Assembly: GCA_019456245.1 (NCBI GenBank)
Contig: VRUF01000009.1
Location: 1-30,009 of the forward strand
Direction of reading: 5' to 3'
Length of the DNA stretch: 30,009 nucleotides
From: Planctomycetota bacterium
GTDB taxonomy: Bacteria; Planctomycetota; Phycisphaerae; Sedimentisphaerales; Anaerohalosphaeraceae
Shown here: positions 1,741 to 30,009 of the stretch, in pieces
Layout: every line of letters begins with the position of its first letter
Numbering within the stretch: the first letter of the stretch is position 1
Position numbers and translations under genes: made by a program
Notes under the pieces: model-generated
What the model was told of the DNA's origin: nothing
Databases searched by the model: none
Seen by the model: only the letters and a program-made list of their open reading frames with translations

Positions 1741-4700
1741 ACCGCAAGCAGGCGTACCATATCGTTCAGGAGACCTTCCCCCAGACCTTCGATAAAGCCA
1801 GATTCCGCAATTTCATCATCAACCTGCTCAACCAGGTGGATGAGTCAAAGGCCTCCGCATGGGGCAACCAGTATATCAAGAACGCCTTCAAGAATTACGT
1901 CAGCCGATACGAAAGAATCGGCACCTATTCAACACCTGATCAGGATAGGCTGGATGTACTCATCGTGCATCTCACCCACGAATCCAAACTGGATCGTGCC
2001 CGGACTGCCATCCGCGACTTTGTTGCCGATCATTTGAAGCAACGCGACGAGAAGGAAGCGGCGCTGGTTGCCTTCGTATCACCGACGGAAACACTGTGGC
2101 GTTTCTCCTATGTGAAAATGGAGTATGCGGCCGTCAGAAAAGATACAGGTAACGTAGGCGTTGAGACCCGTCTAACACCTGCTCGCCGTTTCTCCTATAT
2201 CGTTGGCGAAGGGGAGAGTTGCCACACGGCCCAGACGCGCTTCCTGGATATTCTCCAGAATACACACACTGATCCTAGCCTCGCAGAGATTGAGAAGGCC
2301 TTCAGCGTTGAGGCTGTTACCAAGGAATTCTTCAAGCTGTACACCGGTTTGTTCGAGGAACTTCATGACGCCCTGGAGAAACTCACGGAGAAGGATGCAA
2401 CCATTCGTGAAGAGTTTGAAAACAAAAGCATCAGCAGAGTGGACTTTGCCAAGAAGCTAATGGGACAGATCGTATTTCTTTATTTCCTCCAAAAAAAGGG
2501 TTGGCTTGGTGTTGAAAGAGGCCAAGAATGGGGCACAGGTCCGCGCAACTTCCTGGGCCGGTTGGCAAAAGGAGAGTATAGCCAGTACAGGAATTTCTTT
2601 AACGATGTCCTTGAACCGCTGTTCTACGATACGCTGGCCCATGACCGGGGGCATGAAGCCTGGGAGGATCGTTTCAATTGCCGTATCCCTTTCCTGAACG
2701 GTGGATTGTTCGAACCACTTGGGAACTATGACTGGGAAAAAACCGATATTGTCCTGCCGGATAGTCTCTTCACCAACTCCGAACCTGTTGAAGAGGGGAT
2801 CACCGGTACCGGTATATTTGATGTTTTCGACCGCTACAACTTCACAGTGAACGAGGCAGAGCCCCTAGAAAAAGAGGTGGCCATCGATCCCGAGATGCTG
2901 GGGAAAGTGTTTGAAAACCTGATCGAAGAAAACCGGCGTAAGGGGATGGGAGCCTACTACACGCCCCGTGAAATTGTCCACTATATGTGCCAGGAGAGTT
3001 TAATCCAATATCTCGACAATTCTATTAACATTCAATCCGAATCAATCGTCCCTGGCAAACCGGTTCAGGAAAACCTGCTCGGCCCCACTGAACCGAAGCA
3101 AGGTACCCTGAAGACCGCCGCCTATAAAGAACGTGTACCACGAGGCGACCTAGAAACGTTCGTCCATCTGGGGGAACAGATTTCCCACTACGAAGCCGTT
3201 GAAACCGAATATCGCGTAAAAATGCCCAAGAGTATTGATCAACATGCCCGGCTTATCGATGAGAAGCTCCAGGAGATCAGGATCTGTGACCCTGCCGTCG
3301 GTTCTGGAGCATTCCCTATAGGGATGATGATGGAAATCGTCCGTGCCCGCTCCGCCCTTACACCCTATTTCAATGACATCCATGAGCGCACGCCATACCA
3401 TTTCAAACGCCATGCTATTCAAAACTGTCTCTATGGTGTGGATATCGATGCCGGGGCTATTGAGATTGCGAGACTTCGAGCCTGGCTCTCGTTGGTTGTG
3501 GATGAGGAAGACGTTCAACAGATCAAGCCATTGCCGAACCTGGATTATAAGATGGTTGTCGGGAACTCCCTTTTCGGTGTCGAGAGGACCGTTTTCACCG
3601 GCCCGCTTTTCGACAGACTGGAGAAGTTGAAACCAACATTTTTCGATGAAACCGACACGTCCATGAAGGCGGAGTTGAAAATTGAAATAGACGACCTGAT
3701 CCATCAACTCACCGGCGGTAATCAAGTATTCGACTTTGAAATCTACTTCTCAGAAGTGTACCACGAGAAAAACGGATTTGATGTGGTGATTGCCAATCCA
3801 CCTTATGTCCGTCAGGAGAAGATCAAGGAGATAAAGCCCGAACTCAAGAAACGTTATGACTGCTATACCGGTGTGGCGGACATCTACGTGTACTTCTATG
3901 AGCGCGGCTTTCGATTACTAAGGCAAAATGGGACGCTGACCTTCATATCCTCCAATAAATATTTCCGCTCCGGCTACGGAGAGAAGCTGCGTCAATTTCT
4001 AGGCAGCAAGGCCACCGTACATCACCTGATCGATTTCGGGGATGCACCCATCTTTGAGGCCATCGCGTACCCAAGCGTCATTCTATTGAGTAGAAAACCA
4101 CCCTACTCCAACCAGACCCGTGCGCTGAACTGGCAGACCAATCTCCCGCTGGAAGACTTTAATACGGTCTTCCAATCCCGAAGCTTCCTCATTGCCCAAA
4201 AGGAACTCACTGCGGACGGCTGGCGACTGGAATCGCCGGCGGTGTTACGCCTCCTGGAGAAATTGCGCCGAGCAGGCCAGCCCTTGGGTGAATATGTGAA
4301 CGGCCGTTTTTACCGAGGAATCTTGACCGGTTATAACAAGGCTTTCGTGGTAGACCGGGAGACGCGGGACCGATTGATTGCCGAACATCCGTCCTCCGCG
4401 GATGTGTTAAAACCCTTTCTACACGGTAAAGATGTGAAGCGGTGGTGTGTTGAACCGAAGGACTTATGGCTTATTTTTACGCGACGGGGGATAAACATCG
4501 ATGAATACCCTGCAATCCGAGGACATCTCGAAGACTTCCGAGAGAAACTAGAACCTAAGCCCAACGATTGGAATGATGAGAAACAAGGCAAGTGGCCGGG
4601 CCGAAAAGGAGGTAGCTACAAGTGGTATGAAATTCAGGATAACATTGCCTACTGGCAGGAGTTCGAGGAGCCGAAGATAATCTATCCAGATATTGCGCAA

Positions 4701-5069
4701 AGGGCAGAATTTGCCTTCGATAAATATAACCTATATCCGATAAATACACTTTATATCATGCCCACCACGAAGACATGGCTGGTCGGTATGCTAAATAGCA
4801 AAGTCCTGTTTTGGTATTATACAAAAATCAGTTCCCAGATCAGGGGAGGGTTTGTACGGTATATCGCACAGTATATCTCACAGATTCCCATTCCTGCCTG
4901 CACGCCAGTTGAAAGTCAGGCATTGGAAGGCCTGGTAGAGAATGTCCTGTCTGCAAAGAAGCAGGACTCCGATGCCGATACAGCAGGGCTCGAGCAGGAG
5001 ATTGATCGAATTGTATACAAACTGTATGTATTGACAGAGGAGGAGATACGAATTGTGGAGGATTGTTAA
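1737..5069 (+). CDS. Eco57I/type IIG-like N6-adenine DNA methyltransferase with TaqI_C-like target recognition region
   Basis: GAYYTPREIV, motif I DPAVGSGAF, motif IV DVVIANPPY; 1110 aa; ATGA overlap with helicase stop (1737-1740). Confidence 0.9.
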   Translation: MNRKQAYHIVQETFPQTFDKARFRNFIINLLNQVDESKASAWGNQYIKNAFKNYVSRYERIGTYSTPDQDRLDVLIVHLTHESKLDRARTAIRDFVADHLKQRDEKEAALVAFVSPTETLWRFSYVKMEYAAVRKDTGNVGVETRLTPARRFSYIVGEGESCHTAQTRFLDILQNTHTDPSLAEIEKAFSVEAVTKEFFKLYTGLFEELHDALEKLTEKDATIREEFENKSISRVDFAKKLMGQIVFLYFLQKKGWLGVERGQEWGTGPRNFLGRLAKGEYSQYRNFFNDVLEPLFYDTLAHDRGHEAWEDRFNCRIPFLNGGLFEPLGNYDWEKTDIVLPDSLFTNSEPVEEGITGTGIFDVFDRYNFTVNEAEPLEKEVAIDPEMLGKVFENLIEENRRKGMGAYYTPREIVHYMCQESLIQYLDNSINIQSESIVPGKPVQENLLGPTEPKQGTLKTAAYKERVPRGDLETFVHLGEQISHYEAVETEYRVKMPKSIDQHARLIDEKLQEIRICDPAVGSGAFPIGMMMEIVRARSALTPYFNDIHERTPYHFKRHAIQNCLYGVDIDAGAIEIARLRAWLSLVVDEEDVQQIKPLPNLDYKMVVGNSLFGVERTVFTGPLFDRLEKLKPTFFDETDTSMKAELKIEIDDLIHQLTGGNQVFDFEIYFSEVYHEKNGFDVVIANPPYVRQEKIKEIKPELKKRYDCYTGVADIYVYFYERGFRLLRQNGTLTFISSNKYFRSGYGEKLRQFLGSKATVHHLIDFGDAPIFEAIAYPSVILLSRKPPYSNQTRALNWQTNLPLEDFNTVFQSRSFLIAQKELTADGWRLESPAVLRLLEKLRRAGQPLGEYVNGRFYRGILTGYNKAFVVDRETRDRLIAEHPSSADVLKPFLHGKDVKRWCVEPKDLWLIFTRRGINIDEYPAIRGHLEDFREKLEPKPNDWNDEKQGKWPGRKGGSYKWYEIQDNIAYWQEFEEPKIIYPDIAQRAEFAFDKYNLYPINTLYIMPTTKTWLVGMLNSKVLFWYYTKISSQIRGGFVRYIAQYISQIPIPACTPVESQALEGLVENVLSAKKQDSDADTAGLEQEIDRIVYKLYVLTEEEIRIVEDC

Positions 5070-13736: not shown

Positions 13737-15152
13737 TCAAGCAAATGGGATATGGCGCAAGCGAGAAATAATATGCTGTTTTATATCTTCCCTTCTCCCT
13801 AATGAAACAATATCTGGGAAAAGCACATAGAGTCGCAATATATAAAGAAAATGATCAGAAAGGATTTTCATTAGCGAGTTATCCATTTCCATTATGGTCC
13901 TTGGCTCATCATTATCTTCTTTTATGAAGATTGATCTTCCAAGTTGCTCATAATGACTCTCTTTTGGATCTAACATTTCGGATACTGGCATTCTACTACC
14001 CATCGAAGTTATCGAGTTTATGGGAATTTCAACAACTTCCCAAAGGTCTTCAGGAATATCATATCTCTTTGCTAAATCCGGTATGAGACTTTCCAACTCG
14101 TTGACCATTGAAGCAAATCCCTGCTGATGATCACGAGTCCCGAGATGCTCATAAGATACAATTGCCTTAGGAGGCTGCCTATATAGTATAGAATCTGCTT
14201 TTATTTTCAGAATCCTATCATTATTTCTTATCTGTTTTATCTTCTCGAGTATGAAATGATCGTTAAAATCGCGCCATGCTCCATTTTCAATCTTATCTTG
14301 AATTACAGATTTTGTGCAATCGAGATCATCATCTAATAATGCCATAATTAGGTCTTGAAGAATTTTTTCAATACCAGAAGTTGTCTTATGATAAACGATT
14401 TGCTTGTATTGAAAATACCGAGAGATTAAGAAGTGATCAGCAGCTGCCAAAGCCTTATAAGGAAGGCACAACCTATTATTTTTACCGCCGACTGTAAACT
14501 GGCTAATTAAGTAATTAATATCATGTAAGCCGTAAGGAAGGGCTGTTAGGTGAGCAGTACGTAGTAAATAATCAATGCGGTCTGCGTCTAAATCGGAGTT
14601 GAGAAGACTAGGGAAACGAACTTCGGGACTATGAGGTCTTAGTAATTCGGAAATTAACTTGGCGCTAATATTTTCAGAATCTAACACTTGGTTTATGCCT
14701 GGATCTTTGAGTATTATTTGCCTGCCAAGCCTATCATGGGAATAATATTCTTGGATTGAATGACCGTTTCTATGAGAATTAGAATTTATTGTCTGCAATG
14801 TGTAGTAATTACTTACGGATTTTTCCATAACATGAGAAAATGGATAATGGCCAATATCATGGAGTAGTGCTGCCAGTCGATAATATTGGATCTCGTCTTC
14901 TGATATACCCAAACTTTTATTTTTCATTCTTAACGAATTGAGTATGCGTCCAGCGATGTGGCACGTACCAATAGAATGGGTCAACCGAGAACACTCAGCG
15001 CTGGGGTAAACGTAATGAATTAAACCCAGTTGTCTTATGTTACGAAGGCGTTGAAAGGTAGGAGTACGGATGATTTTGGTCTCGAGCTCACTAAGTCCTA
15101 TTAATCCATGAAGAGGATCAGATATATTTATATGGTGGTATCTACTGGACAA
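13737..15152 (-). CDS. HD-domain phosphohydrolase, YwfO/SAMHD1-like (putative dNTP triphosphohydrolase)
   Basis: DPLHG, FQRLRNIRQLG, RLTHSIG, LLHDIGHYPFSH, DADRIDYLLR. Confidence 0.9.
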   Translation of the reverse strand: MSSRYHHINISDPLHGLIGLSELETKIIRTPTFQRLRNIRQLGLIHYVYPSAECSRLTHSIGTCHIAGRILNSLRMKNKSLGISEDEIQYYRLAALLHDIGHYPFSHVMEKSVSNYYTLQTINSNSHRNGHSIQEYYSHDRLGRQIILKDPGINQVLDSENISAKLISELLRPHSPEVRFPSLLNSDLDADRIDYLLRTAHLTALPYGLHDINYLISQFTVGGKNNRLCLPYKALAAADHFLISRYFQYKQIVYHKTTSGIEKILQDLIMALLDDDLDCTKSVIQDKIENGAWRDFNDHFILEKIKQIRNNDRILKIKADSILYRQPPKAIVSYEHLGTRDHQQGFASMVNELESLIPDLAKRYDIPEDLWEVVEIPINSITSMGSRMPVSEMLDPKESHYEQLGRSIFIKEDNDEPRTIMEMDNSLMKILSDHFLYILRLYVLFPDIVSLGRREDIKQHIISRLRHIPFA

Positions 15153-16324: not shown

Positions 16325-18259
16325 ATGAAACTAGAGAAGATAACGATAAAGAACGTAAGAAGTTTTAAATCCCAGACACCTGTATCATTTGGCGAAAAAG
16401 TCTCAATCTTGATAGGCCCAAACGCCGGAGGAAAGAGCAATCTTTTAGACATCATTACTATTGCTATGAGATCCTTTTTATTTAAGACGTATGCAGAATA
16501 TAGGCGTGAAAGAAATGGATATTTCTATACTGACATCGAGGAAAAGTCAGTTTTTAAAGATACAAGTATAATTCTGGAGAAATTTTCTGGTGACGATTCA
16601 GACTCAAGCATTATCATTACTATTCGACCAAGCCATGAAGACTTGTTGAACATGAGAATGATACAAGACAACACTGAAAGGTTCCTTGACCTGCTAGGTA
16701 CTAAATACAAAAATAAGCCATTGAGCGACCTTTCTTTCCTGGCAACGTGGGATTTTGAGGATTTGGAACAACTTCCCTCCTTATCATATAGATATATCAA
16801 TAACCAGCTCCAAAGTCCAGAACTGGCTACACCAGCTGATTTCTATCTCCAATACCTTCAATATTTTGATTTTTTCCTGCTGCTATCTCGTCGCTTGCCG
16901 GACATAGATCTAAAGCCAACGTTTCTCTATTTTTCTCCCTATAGACAAGCAACTCAAGAAAGTCTAAGGATCTCATTGTCAGGACAAACATACTCCGACC
17001 TGTTGACGAGCTACTTTGGTTCTACATCCCATTCTCCACAGACGACAATCATTCAATTGGCAACTAGTTATTTCGCCCAAAAGAGGCGCGAATACGAAAT
17101 TCAAGGCCGAACTGAAGGATGGGAAAATAGCTGGATCAACGATGAAGAGGTAGGTCTTTTAACCAAGTATTTGAACCTCTTAGGGTACGACTGGGACATG
17201 GAGATTCTTCATGACTCCAGTAACATCTATGCCATTCAATTAAAAAGGGGTAGTTCTCTACTAGAATTGAATAGGGCAAGTTCTGGGGAGAAAGAAATAG
17301 TCAATTTTCTTATGGGAATATTTTCATTTAATATTAGAAATGGACTCATTATCATAGACGAGCCGGAATTACATCTTCATCCTAAGTGGCAAAGGACGTT
17401 GATAGATTTATTCCAAACTATGGCAGAAGATACAGGGAATCAATTCATATTAGCAACTCATTCACCAGCATTAATTACTGAAAAAACAATTGATAGCGTA
17501 TTAAGAGTCTATAGTGATAATACAGGATCGAGTAAGGTCATGAAGATAGTTAATGAGTCAATTGGCGATGCAAGAGACATTCTTCACATTGTTAACTCAC
17601 ACCATAATGAGAAACTATTTTTCGCAGACAGGGTAGTGTTGGTCGAAGGACCGACAGATAGACTGATATTTGAATCGATGATAGGAAAATATCTAGCGAA
17701 AAAAGAAATAGTTATTGAAGTGTTAGATGTAGGAGGGAAACACAATTTTGATAAGTATATAAATTTCTTGAATAGTATCGAAGTTAAAAATGCAATAGTA
17801 GGGGATTTGGACTACGTCTTTGATATTGGAAATGAGGTGATTAAGAAGCTGTTTTTAACGGACTATCAAGGAATAGACGAGAAAATAATTAAGAAAAAGA
17901 AGAGTAAGGACAGAAAAACACTTGCTGAGAAGTTGGAAAGTGCATTAGAAACAAACCAATTAGGTGAACTTAAGGAATTCTGGAAGTACCTAAAGAGCAG
18001 GCAATACAAGCTACGTGGTGATCTAAGCCGAATAGAAAAACAAACATTAGATGATTTTATCAATGAGCTAAGGGAGCGTTTAATATTCATATTACGTCAA
18101 GGAGAAATAGAAGATTACCTACCTGACGGCTATAAGGATTTGGACGGAGTAATTGAGTTGGTTATAGAAGAGAACTTTGATAAATGGTTGAAAGATATGG
18201 AGTGCACCGAAGGATTGGAGGAATTGAAACTAATAGTAAGAGCAATCATCGATGCCTGA
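16325..18259 (+). CDS. OLD-family ATP-dependent nuclease (ABC ATPase + Toprim)
   Basis: Walker A GPNAGGKS, signature SSGEKE, Walker B IIIDEPELHLHP, ATHSP; Toprim VVLVEGPTD, VGGK, IVGDLD. Confidence 0.9.
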   Translation: MKLEKITIKNVRSFKSQTPVSFGEKVSILIGPNAGGKSNLLDIITIAMRSFLFKTYAEYRRERNGYFYTDIEEKSVFKDTSIILEKFSGDDSDSSIIITIRPSHEDLLNMRMIQDNTERFLDLLGTKYKNKPLSDLSFLATWDFEDLEQLPSLSYRYINNQLQSPELATPADFYLQYLQYFDFFLLLSRRLPDIDLKPTFLYFSPYRQATQESLRISLSGQTYSDLLTSYFGSTSHSPQTTIIQLATSYFAQKRREYEIQGRTEGWENSWINDEEVGLLTKYLNLLGYDWDMEILHDSSNIYAIQLKRGSSLLELNRASSGEKEIVNFLMGIFSFNIRNGLIIIDEPELHLHPKWQRTLIDLFQTMAEDTGNQFILATHSPALITEKTIDSVLRVYSDNTGSSKVMKIVNESIGDARDILHIVNSHHNEKLFFADRVVLVEGPTDRLIFESMIGKYLAKKEIVIEVLDVGGKHNFDKYINFLNSIEVKNAIVGDLDYVFDIGNEVIKKLFLTDYQGIDEKIIKKKKSKDRKTLAEKLESALETNQLGELKEFWKYLKSRQYKLRGDLSRIEKQTLDDFINELRERLIFILRQGEIEDYLPDGYKDLDGVIELVIEENFDKWLKDMECTEGLEELKLIVRAIIDA

Positions 18260-19743: not shown

Positions 19744-20940
19744 ATGCCAGATCCTGAAAAGAAAGATATACATAATCGGAAAAGAGGTTACCAAACTGCT
19801 TTGAAGAACTTGGAAGGTAATACAGAGATCATTCCTCGTAATAAGGAACTTATTCTAAAATTTATTCGGGACTGTCGTCTCGGGAAAACGCTTAGGAACA
19901 GGCAGAAGAAGAGTATTGGAGTTGCTCGATGCCTGAAGTATATCTGCATTTTAAAGAAACTATCCTCATGGTTAAATAAACCATTTGATCAAGTTGTCCA
20001 AAGGGACATGGAAAAACTCATAGAAAATTTAGAAAATGACAATTATACGAGTGAACTGCGTGGAAAGAATGGTCAAGTTATAAAAATAAAAAAACTAGCT
20101 CATTCCACGAAGCTGGATTATAAGAAGACGATCAGGAAATTCTACAAGTGGCTCCTTGGCAATAATGACCATTTCCCTGAGTTGGTTGACTGGATTGATA
20201 CTTATGATTTACCACGAGAGGTCTCTGCCTTGACCAGGGATGAAGTTGAGAGGCTTGCCGATGCGTCGAAAATTCGAGATAAAGCCATCATCATGTTATT
20301 GTTCGACAGCGGCGCGAGAGCAGAGGAATTCCTGAACATCAAGATAAGTGATCTCACGAAGCGCGACGATATCTACAGGATGAGGATAGTCCACTCCAAG
20401 ACAAAGCCCAGGACGATCCACCTACCGATAGGCACCAAGTACCTTGATCTGTGGCTCCAAGGATTTACGGACAGGGACGATCAGAGTTACCTCTTCCCGA
20501 TAACCTATGAGGGGCTTAGAATGATGCTGCACAGAGTAGGGAAGAGAGTACTGAATAAGAGGGTCACGCCCCATATACTGCGTCACACCAGTGCCACATA
20601 CTACGCCAACTTGTTGAACCACCACCAGCTTTGTTATCGGTACGGGTGGGCGATGGCAAGTAATATGCCCAACCGCTATATTGATCGTGAGGGCATTCTC
20701 GAAGAGGAAACGCGCCATATCGTGAAAACGAATGACTTAGCTACCCTAGAGAGGCAGAACCAGGTGCTGCAGGAGGAGCTGGCTCTTCTCAAGCAAGGAA
20801 ATGAGCAGGTGAATAGGGAACTCGCTGATCTGCGGAGAAAGTACGATGGACTTTTTGCGGGAAAGGGACTGATGAGATTGCTAGCAGCGTTATCTAAAGA
20901 TCGAAAGGGTGGTTGGATGGTGAATTCTCAGTACTCGTAG
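19744..20940 (+). CDS. Tyrosine recombinase/integrase with C-terminal coiled coil
   Basis: RDKAIIMLLFDSGARAEE (Arg I), SKTK, PHILRH (HxxR), YGW...MPNRY (catalytic Tyr); ATG at 19744 follows AGGA. Confidence 0.92.
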   Translation: MPDPEKKDIHNRKRGYQTALKNLEGNTEIIPRNKELILKFIRDCRLGKTLRNRQKKSIGVARCLKYICILKKLSSWLNKPFDQVVQRDMEKLIENLENDNYTSELRGKNGQVIKIKKLAHSTKLDYKKTIRKFYKWLLGNNDHFPELVDWIDTYDLPREVSALTRDEVERLADASKIRDKAIIMLLFDSGARAEEFLNIKISDLTKRDDIYRMRIVHSKTKPRTIHLPIGTKYLDLWLQGFTDRDDQSYLFPITYEGLRMMLHRVGKRVLNKRVTPHILRHTSATYYANLLNHHQLCYRYGWAMASNMPNRYIDREGILEEETRHIVKTNDLATLERQNQVLQEELALLKQGNEQVNRELADLRRKYDGLFAGKGLMRLLAALSKDRKGGWMVNSQYS

Positions 20941-21809
20941 GGATCGTTCCATTTTTCCGATGGAAGTCGAATCTGAAGTTCATCATCTTCATTTGCCACA
21001 TCCGTTGAAAGCGGCTCAATAAGTGCCAGGTACAGTTGATTATACCCCAAGTCTATAATTGATTCCATTGCCTCAATCTCTCCCCCAAAATCTTGATACC
21101 ACTCGCTTAGAGACAATTGAACAGTGACCCTATCATGAACACCCCGAATGAATTCGCTTGCCAATGTGGATGAATTTATCGGAAGGGAATTCAATGATCG
21201 ATGGCCTCGAACCAGATTTTTCATTCCATCCGACCGTATTTCATATTTGACTGTTCCATTTTCATGACATGCAATAAGACTACATGCACATTTCCCAGCC
21301 AGTTCGACGAAGCGATGTGCAGTTGCATAGGCGGAAATATTGAAAGTGTCCGATAGCGAAGCTATAGAAGTATTTGTATACCCCATCGGTGCCATCGCTG
21401 TTTGAAAAGCAGATTTGGGGACCAAAAAATTGATGGCAAACTTATCCGCTTCTCTCTCCACAATCCTATCGGAAGAAAACTCAGTTGTCGAAAAGTGGAT
21501 TCCTTGTTCATTGAGCATGGCACGATGGGAGGGGAGAGTCAGGTGACCTAGTTCATGGGCAAGCGTGAAGCGCCTGAACTTTTCGCTCCAGTTTTGATTC
21601 TTATTATAAAGGATTAGATAATCCCCCGAGCCGAGGGACCTTGAGGCAGCGGAAAATGAGTCGTGAAACTCCCCTTCCTCATATCTGTAGTCCGTCGATT
21701 CAATGAAAGCATCGATATTTGGAACGAGGCTATCCTTACCAAGCCCAACTTCTTCTTTTAAGTAGTTGACAAGTGTCTCTATTTCATGTTCGTGGAGTGT
21801 TCTGTTCAT
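20928..21809 (-). CDS. ImmA/IrrE-family metallopeptidase (CapP-like)
   Basis: RRFTLAHELGH (HExxH), EREADKFAINFLVP, extended C-terminal domain. Confidence 0.9.
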   Translation of the reverse strand: MNRTLHEHEIETLVNYLKEEVGLGKDSLVPNIDAFIESTDYRYEEGEFHDSFSAASRSLGSGDYLILYNKNQNWSEKFRRFTLAHELGHLTLPSHRAMLNEQGIHFSTTEFSSDRIVEREADKFAINFLVPKSAFQTAMAPMGYTNTSIASLSDTFNISAYATAHRFVELAGKCACSLIACHENGTVKYEIRSDGMKNLVRGHRSLNSLPINSSTLASEFIRGVHDRVTVQLSLSEWYQDFGGEIEAMESIIDLGYNQLYLALIEPLSTDVANEDDELQIRLPSEKWNDPYEY

Positions 21810-22119
21810 CTTTGCCTTCGGCTCTCAAGTATTTTTCTACTATTTTTGTAATCTCCCTGCGAGACTCAGGAGAAAGCTCCTTTAAGTTCCTCATGAGAAT
21901 CTTGGCTTGACCTGCAACCTCTTCGTGTCCTACGAGTAACTCCCTTTCGACACCAAGAAACTTTGCTAGTTTATCAGTCGTCGAAGGTGTGGGCACCCTC
22001 TCGCCCTTTTCGAATTGTGAAATAGCTGCCTGACTGAGACCCGTTGCCTCGGCCAGTTTTTCTTGGGTTAGATTTTTTGTTCTTCGAGTGTCCCGCAAGC
22101 GAATCCCAAAAATAGACAT
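21784..22119 (-). CDS. XRE-family HTH repressor (ImmR/CapH-like)
   Basis: LTQEKLAEATGLSQAAISQFEKGERVP; AGGAG RBS; overlaps the peptidase start by 26 bp. Confidence 0.92.
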   Translation of the reverse strand: MSIFGIRLRDTRRTKNLTQEKLAEATGLSQAAISQFEKGERVPTPSTTDKLAKFLGVERELLVGHEEVAGQAKILMRNLKELSPESRREITKIVEKYLRAEGKDEQNTPRT

Positions 22120-22237
22120 GAAAAACTCCTTGCAGTTATATTATTACAGAAGTAAGTTATACCGCCACCAAGGTGATAATATAACCTATACCGAGGTGGG
22201 TAGTCAACTAAAAACGGTTATGATAAGGAGTATTTCG
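22120..22237. promoter_or_regulatory. Divergent promoter/operator region
   Basis: TTGCAG(22130)-17 bp-TAAGTT(22153); GTTATA at 22135 and 22156, inverse TATAAC at 22180; AAGGAG RBS before 22238. Confidence 0.5.
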
Positions 22238-22474
22238 ATGAAAATAAAAGAGAATGGCCCCTTCTACACCTTCTTTGTTGATGGGGTAGAATATCATATT
22301 GAAGAATCCACGATTACTGGCGGTGGGATCATGGACCTTGCAGGCATACCGTATGAAGTTGGGTTACTTCAACTTCTTGAGGATGGAACCCAACGAGCAG
22401 TTGCAGTGGACGAAGTGGTCGAGCTTAAGCCTGGCCGTCGGTTCAAGAAAGCCCCCCGATACAAGAGAGGATAG
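22238..22474 (+). CDS. Ubiquitin-like beta-grasp protein (multi-ubiquitin-domain type), ends in Gly
   Basis: 78 aa from RBS-supported ATG 22238: FFVDGVEY...TITGGGIMDLAGIP...DEVVEL...KAPRYKRG*. Confidence 0.8.
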   Translation: MKIKENGPFYTFFVDGVEYHIEESTITGGGIMDLAGIPYEVGLLQLLEDGTQRAVAVDEVVELKPGRRFKKAPRYKRG

Positions 22475-22475
22475 C

Positions 22476-22868
22476 ATGCGCCAACGATTGCGACAGGAAA
22501 TCGAATTACTGCAAAAGGCGTATGGTACTGTAGAATCCGATCCAGATATCTCGTGGATAGTTGTGAAAAATGTTCAGCTTCCGGATGGTTGGAATAGAGA
22601 CCAGACTGATATTCTAATTAAAATCCCTCCGGGTTACCCAACCACCCAGCCAGACAACTTTTTTGTCGATTCAACACTAAGGCTTTCCAATGACCAAAAG
22701 CCCAACAGGGCTCCCCAAGAGGAATCCATAGGGAGCAGGGATTGGTTAATGTTCTCCTTTCACCTTGATGGTTCGGGAGAATGGCAACCAGAAGCCGAAA
22801 TTGAGAATGGTCACAACCTCTTAACCTACCTCGAAGGGATAAAGGGGCGGCTCGCGGAGCCGGATTAA
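22476..22868 (+). CDS. Prokaryotic E2/UBC-fold protein (Prok-E2 family E-like), no cysteine
   Basis: 130 aa from ATG 22476: LPDGWN, IPPGYPTTQPDNFF, WLMFSFH, HNLLTYL. Confidence 0.8.
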   Translation: MRQRLRQEIELLQKAYGTVESDPDISWIVVKNVQLPDGWNRDQTDILIKIPPGYPTTQPDNFFVDSTLRLSNDQKPNRAPQEESIGSRDWLMFSFHLDGSGEWQPEAEIENGHNLLTYLEGIKGRLAEPD

Positions 22869-22869
22869 T

Positions 22870-24255
22870 TTGGCCGCTATAAAAATCACAGAGAGTGTCC
22901 GCGAGGAAGTGCTTCAATACCTATTCTCCAAACCGGGTGAGCATTTTGGTTTCCTCTCAGCTAATGCATACCCAAGCACGAAGGGACCTGTCTTTTTAGT
23001 TCGTGAGTTTCTGCCAATTCGAGATGAACTGGTATCCGTTTCTAATGAAGGATGGGAGGTACATACCGAAGCGATTCTAGAGGTGGTAAACCATGCGGTG
23101 CTAAATCAAAGAGCCCTTATCGAAGTGCATAATCATGCTACGGGGATTGCACAATTCTCAACTATTGATCGTGATGGGTTGGAACAATTTATTCCCTATA
23201 TCCTCGATTCCCTGCCTGGTCGTCCATACGGGGCAACCGTCTGGACCCTGAGCGATGTGTATGGGGAGTACTTTGAAACGAGCGCACGAGGTAATCCGGT
23301 CCGGAGTATTACTACAGTGGGGGCCTCCTTCACACAATTGAATGCTGGACCAGGCAAGGCGGTACTGGACCCCCGCTTCATTCGCCAAGAATCTTGGCTT
23401 ACGTCTGCTGGACAAGCAGCTCTGGGCAAGCTCCGTATCGGGATTGTTGGTCTCGGTGGCACTGGCTCACTTGTTGTCCAAAACTTGGCATATCTTGGGA
23501 TCCAAGATTTTGTGTTGGTGGATGGTGACGACGCTGAAGAATCGAATATGAATAGACTTGTAACGGCATCTTTTGCCGATATGGAGACGCCGAAGACAAT
23601 CCTTGGGCGCAGGCTAATAAGGGGTATCAATCCTAAGGCATCGGTGATGGCTTTGAGAGCTGACCTGAGAACACTGCCTGTCATCGCTCTCTTGAAGGAA
23701 GTCGATGTTATTTTTGGCTGTGTGGACAATGATGGGGCGAGGTTGGTTTTGAACGAACTGTGTCGTGCCTATTATATACCTCTGTTCGATCTCGGTGTGG
23801 GATTGGATGCTGAAGATGGCAAAGTCATATCAGCGGGTGGGCGTGTCGTATCGGCTATCCCTGAAGGGCCTTGCCTTCACTGTCTTGGTGAAATTGACCA
23901 AAATGAAGCTCGATACTTACTTAGTTCCTCAAAGGAACAGGAGGTAGAGCATCGTCTTGGATATGTTGAGGGGCTGGATGTGCCGGCACCTGCAGTGATT
24001 TCCCTGAATGCCACAATTGCCTCCATAGCTGTGAATGAGTTTACTGTATTCATTACAGGAGCTCGTCCTCTGAATTATCTGCTCGATTATGACATGCTTG
24101 GAATGGCATACTCTGTTCCTTCCCAACGGTTAGATCCCCGGACGTCAACCCGGAAAACGGGGTGTGTTCAATGCTCCATCGAGGGAGAAGGAGACGAAGC
24201 ACAGATTGAACGTTACGTGAAAATAAGCAAAACAGGAGATACCCAAAATGACTAG
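22870..24255 (+). CDS. Fused JAB/JAMM peptidase + ThiF/E1 adenylyltransferase
   Basis: E...HNH-x7-S-x2-D JAMM motif (EVHNHATGIAQFSTID); GLGGTG, DGD, SNMNR, GCVD; two CxxC pairs (CLHC, CVQC). Confidence 0.9.
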   Translation: MAAIKITESVREEVLQYLFSKPGEHFGFLSANAYPSTKGPVFLVREFLPIRDELVSVSNEGWEVHTEAILEVVNHAVLNQRALIEVHNHATGIAQFSTIDRDGLEQFIPYILDSLPGRPYGATVWTLSDVYGEYFETSARGNPVRSITTVGASFTQLNAGPGKAVLDPRFIRQESWLTSAGQAALGKLRIGIVGLGGTGSLVVQNLAYLGIQDFVLVDGDDAEESNMNRLVTASFADMETPKTILGRRLIRGINPKASVMALRADLRTLPVIALLKEVDVIFGCVDNDGARLVLNELCRAYYIPLFDLGVGLDAEDGKVISAGGRVVSAIPEGPCLHCLGEIDQNEARYLLSSSKEQEVEHRLGYVEGLDVPAPAVISLNATIASIAVNEFTVFITGARPLNYLLDYDMLGMAYSVPSQRLDPRTSTRKTGCVQCSIEGEGDEAQIERYVKISKTGDTQND

Positions 24256-24598
24256 TCACCAAACATGTGATTGGATAGGAAATAGTGGTAAACGGTATAA
24301 TTACTACATCCACTCGCTACCTACATCAATTGATCCTGGTCAGGACGGTAACTACATCTATGCCAAATTGAATAATCAGCAGCAGTGGATCCCAGTTTAT
24401 GTTGGCGAGGGTGATCTTGCGGATCGTTCAAGCAGTAGTCATCATCAAGCAGATTGTATAAGGAGAAAAGGTGCAACTCATTTTCATTGCCACTTAAATG
24501 CCAGCAAACAAGATCGTCGTTCTGAGGAACAGGACCTTCTCTCCAATTATCAAAACGCTTATCAGCCAAACGGGTGCAATGAACAGCTTGGTGGCTAG
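24248..24598 (+). CDS. Small GIY-YIG-like protein ending in Leu-Gly-Gly
   Basis: GNYIY...YVGEGDLADR...HH...EEQDLL...PNGCN; overlaps the E1 stop by 8 bp; ends CTT GGT GGC TAG. Confidence 0.7.
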   Translation: MTSHQTCDWIGNSGKRYNYYIHSLPTSIDPGQDGNYIYAKLNNQQQWIPVYVGEGDLADRSSSSHHQADCIRRKGATHFHCHLNASKQDRRSEEQDLLSNYQNAYQPNGCNEQLGG

Positions 24599-26299: not shown

Positions 26300-26412
26300 A
26301 AGGGCACAAGCCTCCTCTGCCTGGAGAAGAACACCCCAGAATATCGATACCAACCTAGATCAAATTGTTACCCCATTGCAACCATCAGGTCTTTTTCCGA
26401 CGGACGGAGTGT

Positions 26413-26458
26413 GCCCTTACAAGGCGGAGGTCGCAGGTTCGAGTCCTGCAGCGTCCAC
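26413..26458 (+). pseudogene. 3' half of tRNA-Val(TAC); probable attR core
   Basis: Anticodon loop CTTACAA, 3' strand GGCGG, T-arm GCAGG-TTCGAGT-CCTGC, acceptor 3' strand AGCGTCCA; no D-arm or matching 5' acceptor strand upstream. Confidence 0.85.
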
Positions 26459-26554: not shown

Positions 26555-26656
26555 CAAGGCGGAGGTCGCAGGTTCGCCCCGCCCCGCCTCCAGCGGGATT
26601 TGAACACATCCTGCGGGATTTGTCCCGCCAGCGGCGGGAAGTCCTGCAGCGTCCAC
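26555..26656 (+). pseudogene. Second tRNA-Val 3' remnant split by a 63-bp insertion in the T-loop
   Basis: 26555-26576 equals 26420-26441; 26640-26656 equals 26442-26458; insertion at 26577-26639. Confidence 0.85.
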
Positions 26657-26690: not shown

Positions 26691-26809
26691 GTGTTTATTC
26701 GGAGGTCGGCCTCAGCATAGTTCTAAATCATCTCAGCAGCACCCCCGCCGCCCCGCCGGAAGGCGGGACTGGTCCCGCAGGAAGCGGGGTTGGCGGGACT
26801 TGCGTATCT

Positions 26810-29800
26810 CTATTTCAACAAAAGCATCTTCCGGGTCAGCATGAGGCCATCGGCCTGCAGCACGACAAAATACACCCCCGAAGCCACGCTCCGTCCTGCC
26901 CGGTCCCGGCCATGCCAGACGATCTCGTGGTAGCCCAGGTCCTGCCAGTCATCGATGAGGGCAGCGATCTCCCGGCCCAGCAGGTTGTAGACCCGCAGGG
27001 AGACCTTCGCAGGCTTCGGCAGCGCGTACTCGATGGTAGTGGAGGGGTTGAAGGGGTTGGGATAGTTCTGCGACAGGGCGAACTCCTCCGGCAGCTGGGC
27101 CAGGGCCTCCTCGATGGCCCCCTGCACGTAATCGGGCGTACCGGTGATGACCTTAAAGTGGTAGGGCAGCTCCCCGCGGTAGTCCGTGATGGCTTCAGGC
27201 GGCACGCCGGCGGTGAGGTCGTATACCTGCCTCTGGGCGAGATCAAGGAGCACCACCTGCACACCCGGCGGCACTTCGCCCTGGAGCTCGCAGGCGAGGG
27301 TAATAGGGCCGGTCTCTCCCCGGCTCCGTAGATCCAGGTCCCAGACGCCGTTGGCCTCATCCAGGGCACGCACATCGGAGGTGAACAGGGACATCCCGGA
27401 GTTCGGCGACCAATCCGGCCGGTCCATGGCCAGGGAGACATACCCTTCCAGGTAAGGCGGCTCGGGGTGGTCATACTCATCCCGGTCCTCCGACGCGCCC
27501 TGGATACGACCGACGGTGTTGCCCTCGTCGAAGTAGTGGGTACCCTCAACGGTGATCTCCAGGAGCCAGCCATCGACCGGTTGCTCCGCGCTTTTAGCCA
27601 GGAGCGTCTTGGCCAGGCTGGGCGGCCTGAGCTCCAGGGTCTGGTCCTGGTCGGTGTCGTTGTAGATGATGTAGCCGCCCCAGGGTCTGAAAGTGTCCTG
27701 CACCTGCCCCAGGGACCAGCCCTCCTGCCCGCCGGAACCGAACGCGCCGTAGGCGTAGGGCCCGATGAAGGTGCCCTGGTCGGCGGCTACCGTCACCGGG
27801 AAGGGATAGGGCGAGGAGACCAGGCGCCACTTGCGCGAGGGCAGGGTCAGGCTCCAGCCGGTTAAGTCCACCGACTGCCCGGCGCCCAGGGTGAAGTGGA
27901 CCTCCTCTTCAACGACCTGCTTGAGGAAGTAGCTCTGTCCGGAGGCGAAGCTACCGGCCGCGGCATAATCATCCGGCCCCGGCCCTACGTACTGGAAGAT
28001 CTTCCACGTCTCGTCCGAAGGGGCGCTTTCCAGCGGGGACTGGATGATACTGCTCACAGAGGTATCCGCAATATCGCCGGGGATGGATATGAGCCGCCAC
28101 TTGTTCTTGGGGAAGCCGTAGCGAAAGGCGCTGCCGGCCGTGCTGGAAGTGATGGTGCCGGGTGGGTACTGAACCTGGATGGAGGCCGTATCCGAGCGGC
28201 TGACGTTGCCGGAACTGTCCTCAGCAGCGATGTAGTAGACCACGCCCGCCGGGGTTACGGCGGTCATGGGGACGGTACCGCTATAGGTGTCGGCACTCGG
28301 GCTGGACATGGACACCTGGCTGTAGCTGCTCGCGCCGCCCCTGGCATAGTAGAGCGTGGCCGATTGGATGCCGCCCCCATCGGTGACCGTGGCGGAGACG
28401 GTGATTGCATTGCCGATACTGGGACTGGTGGTAGCCGCCACGTTCGCAATCGCCGGTCCCTCGGTATCCGACCACCGCCCGATAGCGAACTGGCTGAAGC
28501 CGGTGAGACCCGCGAAGGTCACCGTGCTGTCGATGGCCGTAGCCCCCGACCGGATGGCCGCCCACTCGCCGCTGCCGTTGCTTTCCCGCCGGAGCAGTTT
28601 CAGGTTCCCCGGTGCGCTCTGCTCACCGGCGTCAAAGGCGCCCGTACCCAGGTTGAGGGTCATGTCTACCATGAAGGTCCCGCTGCCGGTGTGGGTGATG
28701 GTCCAGTAGCGATCGGCGACCAGGGTGATATTGGCAGGCAGGGTGCCGCCGGGATCGGCATCGAAGGCGGCCACCTGGATGGTATCGGTGCCGGACTGAC
28801 TGGTGAAGTTCAGGACTATATCAGTGCCGGGGAAGGCCACCTCACCGGTGCCGGTAATATACCCGGTTGCCGTGCCCAGCCAGCCGCCCTCCTGGTACAG
28901 CGCCCCAATTTCAGCCTCGCTCAGGGCGCGGTTGTAGATGCGGGCATCGTCCACCTGGCCGTTTAAATAATGATATGCACCAGCTTCGTCTGATGCAATA
29001 TACAAAGGGTATGAACTATCAAGAATCGTACCTACTAAGTTCTTGTCTCCTTTAAGCGCGCCATTTACATATAGCTTCATAACAGTTCCATCGTAAGAGG
29101 CTAGAACATGAGTCCACTCATTAAGCGGTGGCACGACGTTCACCCACATGATTCCCACACCAGCCAAGTAAAATCCTGTCGAATCACCCAGACCCTTTAC
29201 GTAAAATTCTTCGTGTTTGTTGAAAAGTGGATTATCCTCGGTGTTCCACGCATTTATTCTCGTCCATATGGAGAGTGTAATAGAATCGGTCCAACTATGG
29301 AAATCGTCAATCCTAAGCACATCATCCACCCCGTCAAAACTGTATGCGCTGCCGGCATTCCCGAACCGGTCCGCTTCCAGCGCGGCCCCGTAAACCGTGC
29401 CGTTGTTCCCATTCCCGCTCTCGTCGTTGGCATTGCCGCTGAAGGGGTAGTAGGCCACGAGGCCGACCCGCAGGGGATCATAAGGCGTGGCGTTTACCTC
29501 CTCTGTGGCCGCACTGTAGTTCCCGCTCTCATCCACAGCCGCCACCTTGAAGTAGTAGGTGGTGTCGTTGGTCAGGCCCGTTGCGGTGAAGCTGGTGTCG
29601 GGCGGGAGCACCTTCCCCACCGAGTCGGCGCTGGTAGGGGTAAAGCCTTGCGTGGTGTCCTGGTAGACCACGTAGTGGGAGAGGTCCAGCTCAGTATTTG
29701 GCGACCAGGTGAGGGTGACCTGCCCGTTGCCGGTGGCGGCGGCCAGGCCGGTGGGGGCGGCGGGGAGCGGCCAGCCGTCCTCGTAATACAGGGCCTCGAT

Positions 29801-30009
29801 CTCGGCGGCGCTCAGGGCGCGGCTGTAGATGCGGATGTCGTCGATCAGGCCGTCGAAATTATTGCCACCAGACGTATACTGCCCAATGTAGACATCATTA
29901 CTCGTTGTATCTATTGATCCGGTAAATGCCTCGCTGGTATCCAGACTTCCATTGATGTAAATGGCCATCTGCGAGCCGTCATAATTCATTATGAAATGGT
30001 ATTGCTTAT
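26810..30009 (-). CDS. Large secreted/surface protein: LamG-like domains, fibronectin type III, C-terminal FlgD-Ig/T9SS-like tail (5' end beyond window)
   Basis: DDIRIYSRALS and DDARIYNRALS (LamG); PAAPTGL..V.LTW (FN3); LSQNYPNPFNPSTTI...SGVYF...RKMLLLK tail; frame stays open to the window edge. Confidence 0.9.
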   Translation of the reverse strand, partial: KQYHFIMNYDGSQMAIYINGSLDTSEAFTGSIDTTSNDVYIGQYTSGGNNFDGLIDDIRIYSRALSAAEIEALYYEDGWPLPAAPTGLAAATGNGQVTLTWSPNTELDLSHYVVYQDTTQGFTPTSADSVGKVLPPDTSFTATGLTNDTTYYFKVAAVDESGNYSAATEEVNATPYDPLRVGLVAYYPFSGNANDESGNGNNGTVYGAALEADRFGNAGSAYSFDGVDDVLRIDDFHSWTDSITLSIWTRINAWNTEDNPLFNKHEEFYVKGLGDSTGFYLAGVGIMWVNVVPPLNEWTHVLASYDGTVMKLYVNGALKGDKNLVGTILDSSYPLYIASDEAGAYHYLNGQVDDARIYNRALSEAEIGALYQEGGWLGTATGYITGTGEVAFPGTDIVLNFTSQSGTDTIQVAAFDADPGGTLPANITLVADRYWTITHTGSGTFMVDMTLNLGTGAFDAGEQSAPGNLKLLRRESNGSGEWAAIRSGATAIDSTVTFAGLTGFSQFAIGRWSDTEGPAIANVAATTSPSIGNAITVSATVTDGGGIQSATLYYARGGASSYSQVSMSSPSADTYSGTVPMTAVTPAGVVYYIAAEDSSGNVSRSDTASIQVQYPPGTITSSTAGSAFRYGFPKNKWRLISIPGDIADTSVSSIIQSPLESAPSDETWKIFQYVGPGPDDYAAAGSFASGQSYFLKQVVEEEVHFTLGAGQSVDLTGWSLTLPSRKWRLVSSPYPFPVTVAADQGTFIGPYAYGAFGSGGQEGWSLGQVQDTFRPWGGYIIYNDTDQDQTLELRPPSLAKTLLAKSAEQPVDGWLLEITVEGTHYFDEGNTVGRIQGASEDRDEYDHPEPPYLEGYVSLAMDRPDWSPNSGMSLFTSDVRALDEANGVWDLDLRSRGETGPITLACELQGEVPPGVQVVLLDLAQRQVYDLTAGVPPEAITDYRGELPYHFKVITGTPDYVQGAIEEALAQLPEEFALSQNYPNPFNPSTTIEYALPKPAKVSLRVYNLLGREIAALIDDWQDLGYHEIVWHGRDRAGRSVASGVYFVVLQADGLMLTRKMLLLK

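Follow-up and report, generated by a model that had tools for sequence, protein, structure and literature searches.

Oxyester-based conjugation of ubiquitin-like proteins (Ubls) was described recently, and only for operons found via their DUF6527 gene. In Citrobacter, the BubCD and BubB proteins characterised by Ye et al. work via tyrosine and serine oxyester intermediates: the Ser/His pair of BubB is required for conjugation in vitro and in cells, and the substitutions Y370F and S333A/H335A abolish it (10.1101/2024.11.21.623953). The oxyester chemistry itself is therefore not new, having been published in 2024, with structures released in 2025.

We analysed a stretch of 30,009 nucleotides from a Planctomycetota bacterium (contig VRUF01000009.1), referred to as the window. 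By its sequence, it carries what appears to be a bacterial ubiquitin-like tagging system of this Bub kind, with tyrosine and serine in place of cysteine. The features discussed below are the following:

20928..21809, minus strand: CapP-like IrrE/M78 zinc metallopeptidase with a HELGH motif, 293 aa (Peptidase_M78, PADLOC capP)
21784..22119, minus strand: CapH-like XRE-family HTH repressor, divergent to the Ubl gene, 111 aa (HTH_3, PADLOC capH)
22120..22237, no strand assigned: divergent promoter/operator region; contains an inverted repeat of 13 nt and, on each strand, promoter-like hexamers
22238-24255, plus strand: three-gene cassette of Ubl, E2 and JAB-E1, all three reading frames intact
22238..22474, plus strand: BubA-like Ubl, 78 aa, one beta-grasp domain, basic tail ...KPGRRFKKAPRYKRG, free Gly78 (translation, Multi_ubiq)
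22476..22868, plus strand: BubB-like E2 (130 aa, UBC fold), devoid of Cys; putative catalytic Ser94 with His96 and Asp60 (Prok-E2_E)
22870-24255, plus strand: JAB-E1 fusion gene, TTG start, 461 aa
22870..23370, plus strand: JAB/JAMM zinc peptidase domain, about residues 1-165, catalytic E24, H87, H89, S97 and D100
23371..24255, plus strand: E1 adenylation domain of ThiF/MoeB type, with GxGGxGS nucleotide loop 194-200, Arg229, Asp286, zinc site and Tyr365 loop
24248..24598, plus strand: 116-aa gene overlapping the E1 stop codon by 8 nt; its family ends in ...GCNExxGG and is without a Pfam model

Like Bub Type I operons, the cassette combines a JAB-E1 fusion equal to theirs in length and fold, a Cys-free crossover loop with an invariant Tyr, a Cys-free UBC-fold E2 with an equally spaced Asp...Ser-x-His and a Multi_ubiq-type Ubl with a terminal Gly; frequent CapH/CapP regulators and a position on tRNA-associated mobile islands are shared as well. 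It differs from them in lacking DUF6527 (BubE) and in an E1 of a separate clade. Its Ubl, one beta-grasp domain, is synthesised in mature form and has a basic Arg-Gly tail, whereas those of DUF6527-linked loci end in a ...TEG-type sequence. Both CxxC pairs of the zinc site persist in the E1 of the cassette but have been lost from the DUF6527-linked Type I E1s. Bub Type II shares the oxyester logic (an E1-loop Tyr and an E2 Ser) and a Ubl encoded by its own gene, but there the E2 is fused to the E1, no JAB is present, the helper residues are Lys and His, and BubE always occurs; Type II E1s form a distant outgroup in our E1 tree.

Three other described systems share parts of this layout. The '6e' neighbourhood of Iyer, Burroughs and Aravind (2006, PMC1779556) likewise has a polyUbl or Ubl, a Cys-less E2-like fold and a JAB-E1 fusion (Pfam Multi_ubiq PF14452 and Prok-E2_E PF14462), but it includes a metal-binding protein, now DUF6527, its Ubls are mostly poly-Ubls, and its E2 was read as inactive. 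Bil operons (BilABCD, bacterial ISG15-like) also place Ubl, E2, JAB and E1 together on defence islands and conjugate the Ubl to proteins; unlike our cassette, they rely on catalytic cysteines, a large IAD-AAD-CYS E1 with a Cys-bearing E2, and a separate JAB. The window E1 is a single adenylation domain of 300 aa with no inserted Cys domain. Type II CBASS Cap2/Cap3 shares the E1/E2/JAB enzymology and CapH/CapP-type control, but Cap2 is an E2-E1 fusion that uses Cys chemistry and conjugates a CD-NTase rather than a Ubl. In the window the E2 is a separate gene, and Pfam and PADLOC found neither a CD-NTase nor an effector family there. Neither the Ubl nor the E2 is covered by a PADLOC 2023 model, and the E1 yields only weak matches to the CBASS 'E1-E2' models.

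The Ubl gene is preceded by AAGGAG, located 8 nt 5' of its ATG, and its product matches Pfam Multi_ubiq (E 3.7e-8). A free C-terminal Gly had been proposed in the first-pass annotation; the translation indeed ends in ...KRG, followed by a stop codon. This type of end is widespread: 25 of the 26 distinct intact Ubls of the clade finish in a free Arg-Gly, within a conserved basic tail ...[KR]F[KS]RG. Ubl and E2 are separate genes in different frames and not a BubAB pre-protein cut by the JAB; about 30 unfused Type I operons appear in Table S1 of Ye et al., so fusion is not strictly defining. Ubl-E2 fusions or short extensions do occur within the same clade (locus L002; 25 of 150 E2 representatives), and in these relatives Ubl maturation would thus also be a task of the JAB.

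The E2 matches Pfam Prok-E2_E (E 1e-15), and its best sequence match in the PDB is Citrobacter BubB (9eae_C, E 1.5e-5, with D60 aligned). The same chain is the best fold match of its model (pLDDT 92; TM 0.73, rmsd 2.9 A). As had been claimed, the translation has no Cys and places Ser94 within WLMFSFH. The spacing of Asp60, Ser94 and His96 equals that of D299, S333 and H335 in BubB, and Type I E2s from DUF6527 loci have WSRH aligned at the Ser94 site. A word-indexed homologue search with the E2 returned 5 proteins only; in its place, ORFs were extracted from the related loci and all cluster representatives were searched with a profile, which collected 1296 of them at E<=1e-3. Conservation of Ser94, proposed earlier as a check, proved high: of 150 E2 cluster representatives, 143 have Ser in this column and 4 have Cys. 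More distant E2 relatives also have Cys there, which marks the column as the catalytic position. The two putative helper residues are not universal in the wider clade: among its representatives, the His96 column is His in 55/150, and the Asp60 column is Asp in 56/150 and Tyr in 91/150.

Could the E2-like protein be a dead RWD/UEV-like adaptor, with the E1 only adenylating the Ubl for direct transfer or for a role outside conjugation such as sulfur carrying, as in ThiS and MoaD? Cys-less UBC folds were indeed judged inactive by Iyer et al. in 2006 (PMC1779556), and, after BubCD, the next sequence and fold matches of the E1 are MoeB, ThiF and UBA5, whose zinc site it keeps. However, the Ser column is 95% conserved and exchanged only for Cys, the Ser/His of the homologous BubB are needed for conjugation, and the window annotation has no sulfurtransferase or cofactor-biosynthesis genes near the cassette. 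The JAB peptidase and the CapH/CapP regulators also suit a conjugation cycle. We consider an inactive adaptor quite unlikely and retain the reading of an active serine E2.

The E1 domain (Pfam ThiF, E 1.2e-35) belongs to a protein whose closest PDB relative by sequence is Citrobacter BubCD (E 5.8e-24). BubCD is also the best fold match of the JAB-E1 model (E 2e-35, TM 0.73-0.75 over 461 columns), far above ThiF and UBA5; the model has a pLDDT of 88.5, lower in the loop of about residues 361-380. Translation bears out the earlier count of six Cys (C284, C298, C335, C338, C432 and C435), of which C335/C338 and C432/C435 form the two CxxC pairs of the zinc site, invariant or nearly so in 119 homologues. 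The crossover loop was said to carry RLGYV and no Cys. Both hold: none of the residues between 339 and 431 is a Cys, and RLGYVEG puts a Tyr at position 365, in the loop. Alignment to BubCD (9ea4) sets Tyr365 on Y370 and Arg229 on R227. When its conservation was checked as had been proposed, Tyr365 was retained in 118 of the 119 E1 homologues, and no loop Cys occurred among them.

A thioester pathway would load the Ubl on an E1 Cys outside the loop, either C284 (in GCVDND) or a zinc-site Cys, and would not use Tyr365. C284 is invariant in the 119 homologues, and the ThiF/MoeB relatives do employ Cys chemistry. Yet Citrobacter BubCD also has a Cys at this position (CCVDT), and its Y370F variant is dead all the same; the position belongs to the conserved Mg/ATP-site motif shared with MoeB/ThiF-type E1s (DCTDN). 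The other four conserved Cys make up a classic structural CxxC...CxxC zinc site, and the E2 is entirely devoid of Cys. Thioester transfer is thus extremely improbable here, and we keep Tyr365 as the putative acceptor.

A prediction of the complex formed by E1 (residues 165-461), Ubl and E2 scored 0.64, against 0.00 for the best control; 55 of 80 solved complexes reach the score mark applied, as do 3 of 110 mismatched pairs. In the model, the E2 docks on E1 residues 337-359 (crossover loop) and 430-449 (zinc region). This check, suggested in the first-pass annotation, came out in part: E1-E2 docking is predicted, but Tyr365 contacts neither Ser94 nor Gly78 directly, and neither Tyr365 nor Ser94 is among the confident contacts. 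The predicted complex supports E1-E2 docking only, not a transfer geometry, and its passing score may reflect memory of the solved BubCD-BubB complex.

The fusion has the BubCD architecture, an N-terminal JAB/JAMM domain joined to a homodimeric-type E1. Pfam JAB gave no match for residues 1-177, even at E 10, so the domain was assigned via the BubCD alignment and the fold. The JAMM motif is intact, as noted earlier: E24, H87, H89, S97 and D100 are invariant or nearly so in the 119 homologues, the motif residues are positioned as E28/H91/H93/D104 of BubCD, and the phmmer alignment to BubCD spans them. The domain is left as the only peptidase of the cassette and is probably a deconjugase, an idea strengthened by the lack of BubE in the clade, the free Arg-Gly of 25/26 Ubls and the invariant JAMM. 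The wild-type Citrobacter JAB gave no visible removal of conjugates (10.1101/2024.11.21.623953), so a deconjugase role here is not derivable from that homologue.

We searched for BubE at several levels. DUF6527 (PF20137) had no match in the genome of the window (71% complete) or in five other cassette-bearing genomes, nor in about 45 related loci, and a scan of ten genes downstream likewise gave no PF20137; a BubE HMM constructed for this analysis matches only DUF6527-seeded loci. In a quick maximum-likelihood tree of E1s, rooted on Type II, all 26 BubE-less rows form a clade of their own (26/26, SH-aLRT 97), while the eight Type I rows linked to DUF6527 group separately (96). The tree thus places the window E1 in a sister clade, outside the characterised Type I clade.

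One might see in this a decayed Type I operon that has lost bubE and is heading to inactivation. Every one of the 544 Bub operons catalogued in a preprint is reported to have bubE (10.1101/2024.11.21.623953), and the window belongs to a mosaic mobile island, one of whose module boundaries is visible where the 116-aa gene is truncated in locus L006. But the catalogue was seeded on DUF6527, which makes the universality of bubE in it circular. Moreover, the BubE-less arrangement is that of a large, old clade, judging from its support in the tree and the 1296 E2 representatives; its catalytic residues are all under conservation, and the three reading frames are intact. Decay is very unlikely, and we favour a functional cassette.

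The gene order Ubl/E2/JAB-E1 recurs in dozens of unrelated genomes; together with the conservation of Tyr365 and Ser94, this shows that the assembly of genes is not due to chance. In loci of Methanocella, Ktedonobacter and Bythopirellula, distant relatives retain the E1 Tyr but the E2 site is Cys. We see about an even chance that the cassette represents a third, BubE-less Bub type: a minimal Ubl/Ser-E2/JAB-Tyr-E1 module common in uncultivated lineages (Omnitrophota, Planctomycetota, Chloroflexota, Nitrospirota, Latescibacterota and Marinimicrobia-like MAGs), in which the JAB, not DUF6527, would be the deconjugase and the basic Arg-Gly tail the recognition element. If so, the Cys-E2/Tyr-E1 relatives would be living intermediates between thioester and oxyester chemistry. 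Because Ser and Cys alternate at the catalytic column of the E2 while the E1 Tyr stays constant, these proteins can help to trace the evolution of the switch from thioester to oxyester.

That a large sister clade devoid of DUF6527 shares these catalytic residues widens the known range of this chemistry. The clade also provides a simpler, three-protein system for reconstitution, since the Ubl needs no processing, and a natural test of the JAB as sole peptidase.

Upstream and divergent to the operon lies a CapH/CapP pair. The CapH-like gene (Pfam HTH_3, E 2e-15; best PADLOC match capH, E 4.5e-16) is found again beside related cassettes, and homologues of the CapP-like gene (Peptidase_M78, E 5e-14; best PADLOC match capP, E 1.4e-32) adjoin most of them. 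The CapP-like protein is a putative DNA-damage-activated protease cutting the repressor. A repeat search located a 13-nt inverted repeat, 92% complementary, at 22135-22147 and 22173-22185; the region 22120..22237 around it is a candidate CapH operator. Promoter-like sites at 22113-22142 (+) and 22207-22178 (-) are consensus matches only. DNA damage would then be the trigger of the cassette. We infer a defence or stress function, while phage protection has so far been demonstrated in the literature for no Bub operon.

Anatomy, homology, residue conservation, the absence of DUF6527 and the separate clade are established here. The thioester-free, Bub-like pathway first proposed, in which the E2 would use Ser and the E1 possibly Tyr, is supported by the homology to Citrobacter BubCD and BubB, at an identity of only about 21-23% to these characterised proteins. 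By analogy with them, the same Tyr/Ser chemistry would operate in the window cassette, in five steps. The E1 domain would bind the Ubl and adenylate its free Gly78 with ATP, using loop 194-200, Arg229 and Asp286. Tyr365 of the flexible, Cys-free crossover loop would then attack the adenylate, giving a Ubl~Tyr oxyester. The E2 would dock on the crossover loop and the zinc region, where Ser94, helped by His96 and Asp60, would accept the Ubl as a Ubl~Ser oxyester and hand it to target lysines. Finally, the invariant JAMM domain would most likely be the deconjugating and recycling peptidase, since the Ubl is made mature and no BubE is present. We hold it highly probable that the stretch encodes a complete three-gene Bub-type conjugation cassette working by these steps, probably DNA-damage-induced via the upstream CapH/CapP.

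Downstream of the cassette, two tRNA-Val 3' remnants only were detected, at 26421 and 26556; the rest of the assembly has no full att partner. The GC content of the operon is 48%, compared with 46.6% for the genome, and its composition gives no mark of foreign origin. The compositional outlier is the right flank, at 61% GC.

A conserved fourth gene 3' of the E1 is unsupported: downstream genes vary between loci (DUF5788, TPR/YfiO, enoyl-CoA hydratase, DUF748 and unknowns). We considered whether the 116-aa gene might be a fourth component or encode a second substrate of the E1, and rejected this, since it is absent from all related cassettes except L001. Only the window and this nearest relative link it to the cassette, and in L006 it is cut off. 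Its relatives, among 37 homologues, occupy unrelated neighbourhoods, and its Gly-Gly end is a family trait, independent of a nearby E1.

Three closely packed genes on the + strand occupy window positions 22238-24255, present in one copy in the assembly:

22238-22474, + strand: Ubl gene, 78 aa, C-terminus ...KPGRRFKKAPRYKRG followed by a stop codon; Pfam Multi_ubiq match
22476-22868, + strand: E2 gene, 130 aa, zero cysteine; Prok-E2_E match
22870 onward, + strand: JAB-E1 gene, TTG start, 461 aa; ThiF domain at residues 178-416

A ribosome-binding site, AAGGAG, lies 8 nt ahead of the Ubl gene, and the E2 gene begins 1 base past the Ubl stop codon in a different frame. Translation bears out what the first-pass annotation had read in these proteins: the Ubl ends at a free Gly with the stop codon next to it, the E2 lacks Cys and carries Ser94 within WLMFSFH, and JAB-E1 has a complete JAMM motif, made up of E24, H87, H89, S97 and D100. 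As it also stated, JAB-E1 possesses six cysteines, none of them in the crossover loop; they are C284, C298, C335, C338, C432 and C435, and the loop carries RLGYVEG with Tyr365.

Among all PDB sequences, JAB-E1 is closest to the Citrobacter BubCD entries (E 5.8e-24), with MoeB, ThiF and UBA5 far lower; the sole significant match of the E2 is Citrobacter BubB (E 1.5e-5). In these alignments, corrected for two extra residues starting the deposited BubCD chain, window Tyr365 corresponds to BubCD Y370, which lies in a GYITG motif, Arg229 to R227 and the HxH...S..D motif to H91/H93/D104. Asp60 of the E2 matches the BubB Asp, and the spacing Asp60...Ser94-x-His96 is identical in BubB (D299...S333-x-H335). 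With aligned homologues as input, AlphaFold gave confident models, at pLDDT 88.5 (JAB-E1) and 92 (E2). Foldseek's top match to the entire two-domain JAB-E1 is BubCD (E 2e-35, TM 0.73-0.75); to the E2 it is BubB (TM 0.73, rmsd 2.9 A), and typical eukaryotic E2s reach no better than marginal E-values.

Citrobacter Bub conjugates without a catalytic Cys (Ye et al., 10.1101/2024.11.21.623953): the loop Tyr of BubCD (Y370F dead) and the Ser/His of BubB (S333A/H335A dead) are required, with an invariant Asp close by. Since residues and spacing match, the window is predicted to encode the same enzymology, which supports the Bub-like, Ser-E2/Tyr-E1 reading proposed earlier. The Cys-free chemistry itself is not new, being already published and structurally characterised.

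The two residues on which that reading stood or fell are conserved. Tyr365 is kept in 118/119 JAB-E1 homologues (about 450-470 aa). The same set varies little or not at all at the JAMM residues, at C284 and at the four Cys of the zinc site, and shows no conservation of C298. A profile search with 19 E2s against 1.84 billion cluster representatives gave 1296 matches at E<=1e-3, of which 485 reach E<=1e-10; among the best 150 of the 1296, 143 have Ser in the Ser94 column and 4 have Cys. Asp60 and His96, present in the window, are in the minority in the same 150 (56 and 55, respectively, with Tyr at the Asp60 column in 91), pointing to two helper sets: the window E2 has the Type-I-like Asp/His set, and a sister subgroup employs another. 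Around the catalytic Ser, these aligned representatives (P0166-P0315) carry either Asp60 and His96, the combination shared by the window and Type I Bub, or Tyr at 60 with Ser, Ala, Gln or Thr at 96. The split suggests two possible routes of Ser activation.

Distant loci of Methanocella (L026, L028, L031, L033), Ktedonobacter (L030, L032) and Bythopirellula (L035, L038) have Cys at the E2 Ser94 column and keep the E1 loop Tyr. Such a swap of Ser and Cys in one column gives good grounds for taking Ser94 as the catalytic position; these relatives would use a mixed Tyr-E1/Cys-E2 relay. Their motifs at this column are FCTGH, FCIHL and LCYEQ, and their E1 crossover loop has a conserved Gly-Tyr and zero Cys. 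The Methanocella E2s are Ubl-E2 fusions (junction ...FTKG followed by S), and no DUF6527 lies near any of these loci.

BubE (DUF6527), a Ser-His protease removing conjugates, is reported in all Bub operons (10.1101/2024.11.21.623953). This universality is built in, because the catalogue is made up of those operons of Millman et al. that contain DUF6527. Neither the window's genome (71% complete) nor five other cassette-bearing genomes gave a PF20137 match, and an HMM for BubE, constructed on DUF6527-seeded loci, gave zero matches to the ORFs of the window and related loci L001-L048. Within the window's phylum, 16/401 sampled genomes have a Prok-E2_E match, 8 with DUF6527 and 8, including the window's genome, without. 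The cassette is missing from 6/6 same-family genomes and is therefore an accessory element.

In a quick ML tree of the E1 domain (51 rows, after removal of frameshifted, short and paralogous ones; Type II Bub as root), all 26/26 BubE-less rows fall in a single clade (SH-aLRT 97), from which the eight DUF6527-linked Type I rows are separate (SH-aLRT 96). BubE-less E1s retain both CxxC pairs of the zinc site, whereas in DUF6527-linked E1s these are lost; Ubls end in RG in the former group and are of TEG type in the latter. All four zinc-site Cys are present in the BubE-less clade; in the DUF6527-linked E1s (L069-L077) the first CxxC of the MoeB/ThiF-type site, at window residues 335-338, is replaced (SSLLSR, AGLVQR). 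The BubE-less clade was found neither in the Bub catalogue (10.1101/2024.11.21.623953) nor in the 2006 '6e' description (PMC1779556). What is new here is that the window belongs to this large sister clade, which lacks BubE and has a Ubl made in mature form.

Three exact-sequence look-ups and 43 genome loci give a common order, in contigs of close and distant E1 relatives, of Ubl (about 80 aa), E2 (about 128-130 aa) and JAB-E1 (about 455 aa), with no conserved fourth gene in the related loci. Omnitrophota and Planctomycetota loci encode JAB and E1 separately, so the fusion is not fixed inside the BubE-less clade; there and in some others (L017-L025, L027, L034, L036) JAB of about 155-185 aa adjoins E1 of about 280-300 aa. 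A free Arg-Gly end after a conserved basic tail is found in 25/26 distinct intact Ubls of the window group, the sole exception (L002) having two additional Arg, and 25 of the best 150 E2 representatives (of 1296) are fused to a Ubl through the same ...RG junction. Because the Ubl is made without a part to trim, the cassette has no second peptidase and JAMM is invariant, we infer that in the BubE-less clade the JAB domain recycles or limits conjugates. In some relatives, where the Ubl is fused or extended, maturation is a further task of JAB. Conjugates in Citrobacter, by contrast, stayed intact with wild-type JAB (10.1101/2024.11.21.623953).

Upstream of the cassette lie divergent genes for a 111-aa XRE-type HTH protein and a 293-aa M78/IrrE peptidase, whose top PADLOC matches are capH and capP; the 118 bp that separate the HTH gene from the Ubl gene contain a 13-nt inverted repeat, and CapH-/CapP-like genes adjoin most cassettes in the related loci compared. 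The most likely course is that, by analogy with these families, DNA damage or infection would activate CapP, removing CapH and derepressing the operon. E1 would then adenylate Gly78 of the Ubl, which would pass to Tyr365 as an oxyester; the E2 would dock, Ser94 would receive the Ubl, and the Ubl would finish on target lysines.

Modelled together, E1(165-461), Ubl and E2 gave a complex that scored 0.64 (best control 0.00), a mark reached by 55/80 solved complexes and 3/110 mismatched pairs; the prediction may simply reproduce a like complex that is already solved. In the model, E2 residues 51-61, 92 and 103-111 contact E1 337-359 (crossover loop) and 430-449 (zinc region), in parallel with the described BubCD-BubB crystal structure. 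The model, proposed in the first-pass annotation, thus places E2 on the E1 loop and zinc region. Its confident contacts include neither Tyr365 nor Ser94, so it lends no direct support to the geometry of the hand-off.

On contig C137, which the window covers in full, the left side of the operon holds a tyrosine integrase, OLD-family ATPase-nuclease, HD-domain protein, RadC, primase, HerA-like ATPase, several methyltransferases and a restriction-modification enzyme resembling type IIG; the right side holds a 116-aa gene, a nuclease of DUF2779/Cas4-like type and two 3' remnants of tRNA-Val. The surroundings are a mobile, defence-rich island, as likewise reported for Bub operons (10.1101/2024.11.21.623953).

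1737-5069, + strand: Eco57I/MmeI-like fused restriction-modification enzyme, 1110 aa; defence-type cargo
13737-15152, - strand: HD-domain protein; defence-type cargo
16325-18259, + strand: OLD-family ATPase-TOPRIM nuclease (PADLOC Old, E 1e-42); defence-type cargo
24248-24598, + strand: 116-aa gene, overlapping the E1 stop codon by 8 nt
within 26700-30009, right contig end: putative surface-protein gene, 1059 aa, 61% GC

The tRNA-Val at 26388-26458 (ARAGORN) resembles a 3' remnant fused to island sequence; a second, insert-interrupted remnant (26556-26655) lies about 135 bp beyond, and their 21-nt core has no additional copy in the assembly. Coinciding with the remnants, GC shifts to 61% at the right end vs 46.6% for the genome (contigs 44.5-48.7%, 5th-95th percentile), which may reflect a foreign gene, chimerism of the contig or its mis-binning. 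The surface protein was called LamG-like in the first-pass annotation, and its C-terminus resembles a T9SS sorting tail by eye.

The 116-aa family (37 homologues, 48-84% identity) is without a Pfam model; nearly all members end in ...GCNE[KR]xGG, and elsewhere they stand alone in mobile-element or defence-like neighbourhoods, away from E1/E2 genes. The N-terminal half has a GIY-YIG-like appearance (GNYIYAK...VYVGE). In an 85%-identical, Neomarinimicrobiota-labelled locus (L006, 7379-7527), the homologue ends after 7 codons (MTQNQTC) and the frame continues into unrelated sequence, anti-sigma-like by eye; this cut-off marks a recombination boundary immediately past E1.
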